A stretch of DNA of 29,348 nt from a virus. The first letter of the stretch is position 1, and every line of letters begins with the position of its first letter. The notes under the pieces are model-generated. The model did no database searches. It was not told where the DNA came from and was given only the letters and a program-made list of their open reading frames with translations. The stretch lies in the UHGV virus genome UHGV-0299458; one strand, 5' to 3'. Shown here in pieces: positions 20,737 through 22,428 of this stretch. The translations under genes were made by a program, and so were the position numbers.

Positions 20737-21009
20737 TTACCTCCAGATCCGTTGCTGGAAAGTGCGGGACGGACGTGGTGGGCGTTCGGAATAAGGCAGC
20801 CTGACAGAGATTATCCAGTGCCGATAGTCGAGACTGAGAGCTTTCTTAACCTCGAACCCGCGCCTGCGGTAAGAATGAATCAGCCATTCGGCCTGTTCTT
20901 CAGTACATGGTGGGTGTTGGTACCAGTCGGTTTTAAATGCGTGTGAACGCCGCTCATGCCGGATGGCAAGGTCGGTATCAGAATTGTGAAATTTGGTTTT
21001 GTGCGCCAT
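20737..21009 (-). CDS. Hypothetical nin-region protein (90 aa)
   Basis: ORF translationally coupled to the downstream HNH gene; family not recognised. Confidence 0.5.
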   Translation of the reverse strand: MAHKTKFHNSDTDLAIRHERRSHAFKTDWYQHPPCTEEQAEWLIHSYRRRGFEVKKALSLDYRHWIISVRLPYSERPPRPSRTFQQRIWR

Positions 21010-21176
21010 CTGTTTTCTCTGCTGGCGCAGCAGGTGTCAGGTGTTCAGGCTGACGTGCGAATTGTAAACCAGAATGCCAGGAAAAAACAAAACCCGCCGA
21101 AGCGGGTTAAGTGCGGGTGCGTTGAGGATGCCTGACACATCAGAGGTGGCGAGGGATTTCTCCCCCGCCAGGTCTC

Positions 21177-21332
21177 TTACTCCTCAGGTTCGTAAGCTGT
21201 GAAGACAGCGACCTCCGTCTGGCCGGTTCGGATTCGTACCTCGCAGAGGTCTTTCCTCGTTACCAGTGCCGTCACTATGACGGTTAAACAGATGACGATC
21301 AGGGCGATTAACATCGCCTTTTGCTGCTTCAT
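21177..21332 (-). CDS. hok: Hok/Gef-family type I toxin (51 aa)
   Basis: Not in the ORF track (under 60 aa). Translation MKQQKAMLIALIVICLTVIVTALVTRKDLCEVRIRTGQTEVAVFTAYEPEE fits the Hok pattern (TM helix, then conserved ...TRK.LCE.R.R.G..EVA.F.AYE...). A short upstream ORF ends overlapping the hok ATG, mok-like. Confidence 0.8.
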   Translation of the reverse strand: MKQQKAMLIALIVICLTVIVTALVTRKDLCEVRIRTGQTEVAVFTAYEPEE

Positions 21333-21590
21333 AGCCTGCTTCTCCTTGACCTTTCGGTCCGTAAGAGGCTAATCTCTATGTGTCGCATAGATATGGCCTC
21401 AGATTAATGTTAAGCGTCTTGCAGGACGCGTAATGTTAACTGGGGCTTTTCTCTATCTGCCTTTTGGTGTTCATGCCTGAGACAGATAGCCTCAAGCACC
21501 CGCAGTCATTCTACTTAACTAAGATTTCCCCGCAAACCGTTTTTGTCCGGCACAGTAAATATCCAACTAAACCAATGGCGTTCGCTGTAT

Positions 21591-21770
21591 TTACCGCCAG
21601 TATTCAATGCACATGACCGCCATGAACACCCCTAAAAAAAGGGCATTTATATGTCCAAACATTAATATCAAAACATCAACTTTTTCCATATACCTTGCTG
21701 TGAAGATGATGGGCATACATGATGCGAACAACCAGAACGCAACAAACAAAAACTGCAATGCGTTTTTCAT
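21591..21770 (-). CDS. Small two-helix membrane protein (59 aa), AT-rich cargo gene
   Basis: ATG 21768-21770 with AGGGGGAA Shine-Dalgarno; MKNALQFLFVAFWLFASCMPIIFTARYMEKVDVLILMFGHINALFLGVFMAVMCIEYWR; AT-rich upstream region. Confidence 0.45.
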   Translation of the reverse strand: MKNALQFLFVAFWLFASCMPIIFTARYMEKVDVLILMFGHINALFLGVFMAVMCIEYWR

Positions 21771-21940
21771 TATTCCCCCTACAATCAATGTGCAATAACA
21801 TTTAAACACACCTCAATTTGGCCGGACATATAAATATCTAAACCAGAAAAAATCACTTACATAGCGTTACAAACTCTTTAGTCTAAATATTCATCGCAAA
21901 ATATTCCCCATACTTATCAGCCCGTTCTGCGCCAGGTAGC

Positions 21941-22255
21941 TCATTGCCTTATCTGGGAATCTGTAATCAGGTTTCCGGATGCTGGTGGATTTTCGCGTTT
22001 TAGTTGTTCATAAAAGTGCACAGCTTTAACCAGTTCTTCTGATGTCACCGGAACTGGCGGGGCAGCGAATAAGGCCTGAATTTCATAGTTCGGCCTGTCG
22101 TTGCAATCCTCTTTTGTCGGTACATATTTCCAGTCACCAACCCACAGATTCTCCTGAAAGTCCGTAACGCCTTTTTTCACGTAGCGATATCGCCATGCAA
22201 CTGGTTTTGCCTGCCCTGCCGTTTCATGCCCTTCCTGATAATTAATCTCGCTCAT
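21941..22255 (-). CDS. Hypothetical phage protein (104 aa) sharing its N-terminus with the Ea22-like gene
   Basis: MSEINYQEGHETAGQAKPVAWRYRYV...; first ~8 codons and ~24 nt of DNA around the start nearly identical to the start of 23031..23654. Confidence 0.6.
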   Translation of the reverse strand: MSEINYQEGHETAGQAKPVAWRYRYVKKGVTDFQENLWVGDWKYVPTKEDCNDRPNYEIQALFAAPPVPVTSEELVKAVHFYEQLKRENPPASGNLITDSQIRQ

Positions 22256-22428
22256 TCATCGCCCCACTCATCACAATATGCTTCGACCGGAGTTTTTCCT
22301 GCTTCATAATCATCACGCCATGCTTCAGCATCAGCAGCACTGCCACCACGTAACTCTGCATAGTCCATTAACAGTTCATGCCATGCTTCAAAACTGACGT
22401 TGTATTTAGTTGAACCAAAATCAGCCAT
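22252..22428 (-). CDS. Hypothetical small protein (58 aa)
   Basis: MADFGSTKYNVSFEAWHELLMDYAELRGGSAADAEAWRDDYEAGKTPVEAYCDEWGDE; stop overlaps the downstream start (ATGA). Not in the ORF track. Confidence 0.5.
   Translation of the reverse strand: MADFGSTKYNVSFEAWHELLMDYAELRGGSAADAEAWRDDYEAGKTPVEAYCDEWGDE

Follow-up and report, generated by a model that had tools for sequence, protein, structure and literature searches.

Morons are units with a deviant G+C content and with a promoter and a terminator of their own that are expressed from prophages (PMC3594210). One such moron encodes HK97 gp15, a YebO-family protein that is small, inserts into the inner membrane and mediates superinfection exclusion (PMC3594210), and T4 Imm is listed as an inhibitor of DNA injection (PMC11436027). 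In this work we analyzed a small gene of UHGV-0299458, a virus genome of 29,348 nucleotides that is called the window hereafter. The gene lies on the minus strand next to the toxin gene hok, runs from ATG 21770-21768 to TAA 21593-21591 and encodes the 59-residue protein MKNALQFLFVAFWLFASCMPIIFTARYMEKVDVLILMFGHINALFLGVFMAVMCIEYWR. In E. coli Eco889 (NZ_CP015159), a lambdoid prophage with Qin/Rac-like immunity genes has the same sequence as the window.

T4 Imm is a short phage protein of the inner membrane with two hydrophobic segments and no enzymatic domain, and the 59-residue protein is predicted to be built likewise. The two sequences are unrelated, however, and Imm, which has 83 residues, comes from a virulent phage. 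Similarly, HK97 gp15 and the protein described here (by prediction) are both small inner-membrane proteins, belong to mobile units of deviant G+C content in lambdoid phages and have homologues outside functional prophages, but they show no sequence relationship, and gp15 is located in the tail operon whereas the small gene is in the nin region. No match to the T4 Imm, HK97 gp15/YebO or P22 SieA families was obtained in Pfam, PHROGs, NCBIfam or PADLOC. Insertion into the inner membrane, a property of exclusion proteins, is for this protein a prediction drawn from an AlphaFold2 hairpin, from hydropathy and from the distribution of charges.

The peptides of the Hok/Gef family are also small, hydrophobic inner-membrane peptides of prophages, and hok and the small gene are linked in one cassette. 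Yet Hok consists of a single transmembrane helix and a periplasmic domain and is controlled by the Sok antisense RNA and the mok frame, whereas the 59-residue protein has two predicted helices and no HOK_GEF match, occurs also without hok, and is encoded by a gene for which neither an antisense RNA nor a structured mRNA was detected. GhoT/OrtT and the class II holins are of similar size (57-71 residues) and form a hairpin of two transmembrane helices. Unlike class II holins, the 59-residue protein ends in EYWR without a charged domain, and its gene is outside the lysis cassette, which is found at ~15866-16081, the class II holin and lysozyme genes being ~5.5-7 kb away. Kinship with GhoT was rejected (hhalign probability of 0.4%, no Pfam match), as was kinship with the class II holin of the prophage itself, with which BLASTP gives no alignment.

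With respect to morons, the presence of the gene is patchy and its junctions are mosaic: phages of the 933W type do not have it, homology boundaries are found at ~21970 and ~21080, and one junction falls in the remnant of another gene. The base composition is deviant (37-38% G+C against 51%). The sole terminator (21108-21091) follows hok and is thus a feature of the whole cassette rather than of the small gene. As far as its sequence allows one to judge, the product is a moron-like, prophage-encoded small inner-membrane protein whose category is known and whose sequence matches no known family.

The 59-codon frame and its relatives

The earlier note on this DNA, made from the letters alone, had described a highly hydrophobic 59-residue protein encoded by an AT-rich frame with a strong Shine-Dalgarno sequence, located between hok and the Ea22-like cluster. 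All of this holds: the protein has a grand average of hydropathy of 1.19, the Shine-Dalgarno sequence AGGGGGA ends 3-4 nucleotides before the ATG, the open reading frame (ORF) has 38% G+C and the 170 nucleotides upstream 37%, against 51% for the whole window, and the gene is followed by hok, as identified with Pfam, and preceded by a gene of 104 codons. A variant Shine-Dalgarno sequence, AGGAGGA (G to A at 21777), is found in a common allele, and purine-rich equivalents precede the ATG in the other three lineages known.

The length of the ORF alone is not significant since an ATG-initiated ORF of at least 59 codons appeared in 203 of 2000 shuffles of the segment 21549-21940 (~10%). Four lineages were compared, namely the prophage allele of the window, the TA280/L100 allele, a lineage of Shiga toxin (Stx) prophages and a chromosomal paralogue. 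They align without gaps across exactly 59 codons. Amino-acid identity to the window is 78% for TA280/L100, 58% for the Stx lineage and 45% for the paralogue, and nucleotide identity is 85%, 68% and 61% respectively. The corresponding ratios of non-synonymous to synonymous substitution (dN/dS, Nei-Gojobori) are 0.32, 0.11 and 0.17, synonymous sites being saturated in the deeper comparisons. Of the 59 columns for each codon position, the four-lineage alignment has 30 invariant ones at position 1, 37 at position 2 and 15 at position 3. None of the four lineages has a stop codon within the sense frame. The antisense ORF survives only in the two closest alleles and is interrupted by two stop codons in each of the other two. 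The frame is intact in all 87 related loci that were fetched (29 haplotypes), and site diversity among them is 3.3% within the ORF (6 variable sites in 180 nucleotides) against 7-8% in the flanks. Locus L008 (70% identity), apparently an indel-ridden assembly, was left out of the analysis. Together, these comparisons indicate with high confidence that the minus-strand frame of 59 codons is a genuine protein-coding gene, and they point to purifying selection on it. That it is a real gene encoding a membrane hairpin is, in our estimation, very probable.

The AlphaFold2 model, computed from an alignment of 11 sequences, contains two helices (residues 2-25 and 30-58) with a mean predicted local distance difference test score of 71.5, and hydropathy delineates two hydrophobic segments at approximately residues 4-24 and 33-55, as the earlier note had proposed in calling the product a two-helix membrane protein. 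The N-terminus carries a charge of +1 to +2, and the loop (approximately residues 25-32) a net charge of 0, -2 or -5 in the three lineages scored. Lysine or arginine occurs in the loop only in the window (R26, K30) and in the Stx lineage (one lysine), and R59 is conserved in all four lineages. Positively charged residues of membrane proteins tend to remain on the cytoplasmic side (the positive-inside rule), and the charge pattern read in this way suggests that both termini are probably in the cytoplasm and that the short, acidic and variable loop is probably in the periplasm.

The conserved positions cluster in the membrane segments. In helix 1 they are W13, S17, C18, P20, I21 and I22 (S17-C18-x-P20-I-I), and in helix 2 L36, F38, G39, H40 (incompletely), N42, A43, L44, G47, V48 and F49 (L36-x-F-G-H-x-N-A-L-x-x-G-V-F). 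The C-terminus is conserved at I55, E56, W58 and R59 (I-E-(Y/C)-W-R). Helix 2 has a stripe of small residues, G39xxxA43xxxG47, that may allow helices to pack tightly, as such stripes do. Variation is greatest in the loop (TARYMEKVD, TAEEMEEVD, IAKHIPEVD and TSEYLTEAS).

In a word-indexed protein search, relatives were found only in E. coli and Shigella, with 75-100% identity. A profile hidden Markov model search of 1.84 billion representative proteins returned 15 matches and revealed a second lineage (P0036/P0042), also of 59 residues. The weakest match (E 7.7e-4), to a repetitive protein of 458 residues, was taken for noise; the other 14 belong to the 59-residue family. A search with both lineages yielded a third one (P0094), again of 59 residues. 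Scanning of GTDB species representatives gave matches only in E. coli and Shigella, and the sole relative found outside Escherichia/Shigella is an identical copy on a 9.5-kb plasmid record labelled Klebsiella oxytoca.

The prophage-type block is present at a minimum of 95% identity in 1569 of 5426 complete E. coli genomes (~29%), the widely used strain ATCC 25922 among them, as well as in Shigella, in three phage records and in a few records labelled as plasmids. The paralogue block is found once per genome in 1045 of these 5426 genomes (~19%), including the widely used strains Nissle 1917 and LF82 as well as ATCC 11775, and always within the ttcA-uspF interval, the Rac attachment region. There, the gene stands alone between an integrase fragment of opposite orientation and sitD fragments (L011 8001-8180; also L012-L016 and L010 829-1008). 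The third lineage (L102 6001-6180) is carried by a Stx-converting prophage and is rare, with two contigs and none of the 5426 complete genomes. Its gene is antiparallel to the early-right operon and to every neighbouring phage gene, and is flanked by an ORF6N/P22_AR_C antirepressor gene and a C4-antisense/isrK module. Ribosome-profiling literature on K-12 is uninformative here because the Qin and Rac-end regions fetched from K-12, which are the sites of the two lineages in other strains, have no corresponding blocks.

That no family could be recognised, as the earlier note had stated, was borne out by homology checks in Pfam, PHROGs, NCBIfam, PADLOC, PDB and BFVD. Neither the protein nor the family alignment matched Pfam, PHROGs, NCBIfam or PADLOC, and profile and sequence searches of PDB gave zero matches. 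A sub-threshold DUF4212 match of four paralogue sequences (E 0.03) was treated as hydrophobic noise. Databases label the protein only as "hypothetical protein" or "membrane protein", and literature searches by peptide string and by keyword found no paper on it. On this comparison of sequences, the 59-residue protein appears to belong to no described family.

For both main lineages, none of the RefSeq records that were listed or opened (25 listed for the paralogue) has an annotation by the Prokaryotic Genome Annotation Pipeline (PGAP) at the small gene. In phage records ON470612.1, ON470619.1 and PV340562.1, it is the antisense ORF (21607-21798, plus strand) that is annotated, as an 84-residue "hornerin" or "hypothetical protein", and not the minus-strand gene. 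Among the genes of bacteria and phages, those for small membrane proteins are missed most often, and the small gene represents a widespread, well-supported and systematically unannotated family of small proteins, in which nothing mechanistically unexpected has appeared so far. Database proteins P0019-P0026, mostly from collections of read assemblies, are frameshifted around the T7/A7 run at 21634-21640. No frameshift at this run was found among the 87 fetched loci, and those of the databases could be sequencing errors, or else rare inactivation or slippage.

Expression and possible role

According to the earlier note, the gene had an AT-rich upstream region of ~170 bp containing its own promoter. 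The upstream region is indeed AT-rich, but its last ~50 nucleotides (21891-21940) are decayed coding sequence, so that the true spacer measures ~120 nucleotides. As to the promoter, a motif T(A/G)TGnTTAA(A/C)T occurs without variation in each of the four lineages, 29-31 nucleotides from the ATG, despite intervening sequences that have diverged and carry indels; it is also invariant among the 29 haplotypes. The ~40 nucleotides before the ATG are more conserved than the ORF itself. This motif would fit an extended -10 element followed by a leader of ~22 nucleotides. Moreover, the paralogue and the Stx copy would need a promoter of their own because they are isolated from, or antiparallel to, their neighbours. 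A promoter scan of the AT-rich paralogue region was non-specific. The promoter claim of the earlier note thus keeps the conserved motif and the isolated and antiparallel contexts on its side, and loses the part of the region that is a gene remnant as well as any support from a sigma-70 consensus. On balance, the chances that the small gene has a promoter of its own are about even.

The reading that we favour is that the small gene is a stand-alone accessory gene, of the moron type, of E. coli/Shigella lambdoid prophages. A weak promoter of its own (the extended -10 located ~29 nucleotides upstream) would allow expression from the repressed prophage, and the orientation of the gene implies that during lytic growth it is transcribed together with the early-right operon. 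The hairpin would act alone in the membrane through specific helix-helix packing, and not as a soluble factor; such packing is suggested by the location of the conserved features inside the membrane, and it would serve either self-assembly or the binding of a host inner-membrane protein. No conserved protein or RNA partner was found across the three genomic contexts. Taken as a whole (a real hairpin gene, a moron-type accessory, an own promoter and protection of the lysogen), we hold this reading to be slightly better than evenly supported.

Within it, the role that we put first, although tentatively and by analogy, is protection of the lysogen by blocking the inner-membrane step of infection by other phages, as for T4 Imm and HK97 gp15. 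Exclusion would be in line with the retention of an intact copy where the prophage has decayed, with the variability of the periplasmic loop and with the association with hok/sok. The hok/sok locus is itself said to exclude T4, to go by the title of a 1996 report by Pecota and Wood. Our favoured order of roles is exclusion first, then a membrane toxin or lysis modulator, then a modulator of a host protein. If the gene is an exclusion or toxin gene, it would be a new and very compact determinant of phage resistance or of prophage maintenance in clinically important lineages, and this would explain why it travels with hok/sok. The present results supply the gene model, the conserved residues and a candidate promoter.

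Several observations weigh against this reading or parts of it. A consensus scan of 21000-22300 found no sigma-70 promoter (0 against 2.1 expected) and no terminator upstream of the small gene or between it and hok. The candidate -10 hexamer is weak (TTAAAT, in which position 2 is not A), and no good -35 partner accompanies it. The prophage lineage may produce a form of 72 residues starting from the GTG at 21809. All six variants within the prophage lineage are non-synonymous (A16V, V31I, M37I, H40Y, V48G and M53T), so that constraint is visible between lineages and not within this young one, and the replacement of H40 by Y, at a conserved position of helix 2, is a common allele. The comparative evidence consists of four lineages of a taxonomically very narrow family. 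Finally, searches of Pfam, PHROGs, NCBIfam and PADLOC revealed no relationship to known families of exclusion, defence or toxin proteins, and Foldseek returned no match at E <= 0.001 for the AlphaFold2 model against BFVD, a search that is uninformative for a hairpin.

The alternative that survives best, which we nevertheless consider rather unlikely, is that of an ordinary delayed-early gene of the nin region, without its own promoter, expressed only from pR in lytic growth, possibly as a 72-residue protein, and serving the phage and not the lysogen. Transcription of the gene with the early-right operon in the window is suggested by its identical orientation and by the scan, which found neither a promoter nor an upstream terminator. 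The in-frame GTG (21809-21807), replaced by ATG at the equivalent position in TA280/L100, would give 72 residues; start codon and frame are kept in both of these prophage alleles, and many GenBank records use this form. In the paralogue, however, the homologue of the leader is a separate upstream ORF of 12 codons, out of frame, that ends 2 nucleotides before the main ATG, and in the Stx lineage a stop codon interrupts the leader after its fifth codon. The core of 59 residues and its Shine-Dalgarno sequence are kept in all lineages, and since the extension is not, this core would be the common functional unit. When the sequence is read, no usable Shine-Dalgarno precedes GTG 21809, whereas ATG 21770 has one in every lineage. 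Moreover, neither the paralogue (found in 1045 genomes) nor the Stx copy lies inside a co-directional phage operon.

A second alternative, to which we give less credit still, is that the product is a small toxin that damages the membrane: a second killer beside hok, an effector of abortive infection or a modulator of lysis timing. Oligomers formed through its glycine-zipper-like face would depolarize or permeabilize the inner membrane, and the gene would be silenced by H-NS or by low translation until triggered. This would suit a very hydrophobic protein of fewer than 60 residues, with the G39xxxA43xxxG47 stripe and polar residues in the membrane, whose AT-rich gene is a likely H-NS target and, in two diverged alleles, has a physical link to hok/sok; like genes for addictive toxins, it is also retained intact in the remains of decayed prophages. 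However, no antitoxin partner was found. Rfam searches that covered the region in the window, the island of the paralogue and further loci yielded only sok, beside hok and belonging to it, and no neighbouring protein gene is conserved across contexts. The protein resembles neither Hok nor GhoT nor any holin, and does not have the charged C-terminal tail of holins. A type I toxin was considered separately and is unsupported, given that no antisense RNA beyond sok was found, that the mRNA fold is not unusual (z = -1.35) and that the lineages do not share an antisense promoter: the candidate sites of the paralogue are not kept in the window. The conserved ~45 nucleotides after the stop codon have a weak consensus structure (-6.75 kcal/mol).

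A more far-reaching reading would make the protein the founder of a new, Escherichia-restricted family of prophage inner-membrane effectors with a new mode of action, either blocking genome entry, as a new exclusion determinant, through the variable acidic periplasmic loop or acting as a second membrane effector that would form with hok/sok a two-component cassette for maintenance and defence; a domesticated copy would then have become fixed in the ttcA-uspF island of B2-type strains. We regard this as doubtful.

Alternatively, the product could be a regulatory small membrane protein that binds a host transporter, sensor kinase or protease, in the manner of MgrB, AcrZ, SafA or MgtS, and alters physiology and not phage entry. 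Conservation of specific polar and small residues in the transmembrane helices, next to a variable periplasmic loop, would be in line with this possibility, as would the maintenance of the paralogue outside a functional prophage in ~19% of complete E. coli genomes. The argument is nonetheless one of analogy; no conserved neighbouring target gene and no homology to known small regulators were found, and we consider this role improbable. The weakest alternative, according to which the ORF is non-functional, arose by chance within an AT-rich spacer or the regulatory region of hok and owes its conservation solely to the young age of the DNA block, might account for the shuffled frames of similar length, the missing PGAP call, the frameshifted database variants and the wholly non-synonymous variation within one lineage, but it is very improbable and already close to refuted, as exactly 59 codons are kept without indels or stops at 61-85% nucleotide identity, dN/dS is 0.11-0.32 with variation concentrated at third codon positions, other frames are not preserved, and the paralogue and the Stx copy do not adjoin hok.

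The hok/sok cassette and its surroundings

The features of the locus are collected in Table 1.

Table 1. Position of the small gene, of its candidate signals and of neighbouring features in the window.
Feature	Position	Strand	Basis or remark
Coding sequence of the 59-residue small membrane protein	21591-21770	-	Reading frame and conservation in four lineages
T7 homopolymer run, codons 44-46 of the ORF	21634-21640	-	Read from the sequence
Shine-Dalgarno sequence AGGGGGA	21774-21780	-	3-4 nucleotides before the ATG; read from the sequence
Conserved leader, or alternative in-frame N-terminal extension	21771-21809	-	~93% identity to L100, against 85% for the ORF
Candidate extended -10 element TG-T-TTAAAT, 29 nucleotides upstream of the ATG (inferred)	21800-21808	-	Conserved motif; not called by the consensus scan
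AT-rich, poorly conserved spacer upstream of the leader	21810-21890	-	47-70% identity to L100; 37% G+C
Remnant of another upstream gene, coding for its C-terminus; mosaic junction	21891-21953	-	Translates to DKAMSYLAQNGLISMGNILR*
104-residue gene, directly adjacent upstream neighbour in the Ea22-like cluster	22255-21941	-	Operon order
Spacer of 89 nucleotides, from the stop codon of the ORF to the hok mRNA	21502-21590	-	Rfam sok model ends at 21501
sok / 5' region of the hok mRNA; cassette partner, outside the small gene	21330-21501	-	Rfam RF01794, 106.7 bits, E 9.9e-25
hok toxin coding sequence, 51 residues (PGAP hokD); cassette partner	21177-21332	-	Pfam PF01848 HOK_GEF, E 1.2e-23
Intrinsic terminator after hok; downstream end of the cassette	21091-21108	-	Only terminator-like site in 21000-22300
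Stretch of 608 nucleotides without PGAP annotation, between the 104-residue gene and hokD			Contains the small gene
Early-right operon, first part: cro-like gene, ydaT, replication genes, DUF1627 ... Ea22-like gene, several small genes		-	
Early-right operon after hokD: 90-residue gene, DUF968/NinG-like gene, rusA, Q, tRNAs, lysis and structural genes			

Homology to the window starts at ~21960-21980 in 53 of 80 IMG/VR loci; at the downstream end it stops at ~21080-21090, just past the terminator, in 37 of the 80 loci and continues beyond 20920 in 26. These boundaries, at ~21970 and ~21080, define a cassette composed of the spacer, the small gene, 89 nucleotides, sok/hok and the terminator. 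The L100 allele has the same arrangement, with sok/hok following after ~90 nucleotides. Identity between L100 and the window is 90-100% along most of hok/sok, 85% in the small gene and 47-70% in the upstream spacer. In Stx phages of the 933W type, hok/sok is present without the small gene, and homology to the window stops at ~21548. Since this homology covers only the sok/hok part, the small gene is not part of hok/sok. From these comparisons, it appears to form the upstream half of a mobile cassette, whose insertion separates the replication/Ea22-like genes from the NinG/RusA/Q genes.

The remnant at the upstream junction, DKAMSYLAQNGLISMGNILR, is homologous to DKAMDYLKRNGLVSAADVLR, the end of a 187-residue gene that precedes the cassette in L100. 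It lies at 21953-21891 in a frame that is not used by the 104-residue gene and overlaps the 3' end of that gene. The equivalent gene is called a frameshifted pseudogene by PGAP in other genomes (L004 and L005).

A likely hok promoter was read by eye within the spacer of 89 nucleotides (TTTGCG at 21537-21532 and TAGAAT at 21513-21508). Upstream of hok there is a short mok-like frame of ~19 codons (21340-21400, minus strand) whose TGA overlaps the ATG of hok (cTATGA), an overlap that suggests translational coupling; in some phage records the two frames are fused into a 70-residue "host killer protein". An isrK-like Rfam match at 21087-21168 (minus strand), which includes the hok terminator, is sub-threshold (27.2 bits against a gathering score of 50). 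On the plus strand, PGAP predicts a 59-residue protein (WP_001112736.1, 20956-21135) that overlaps the hok terminator and the 5' end of the 90-residue minus-strand gene, and that looks like a doubtful call.

In the Stx-converting prophage (L102), TTGACAAC/TTGTCAAC repeats are located upstream of the third-lineage gene, and a true isrK match (54.9 bits) is found ~290 nucleotides from it. Downstream of the gene, a segment of 46 nucleotides (L102 6218-6263) recurs with ~95% identity next to TnpB/InsQ genes, and one plasmid record has it next to a gene of the hok family; this segment is probably a fragment of a mobile element.

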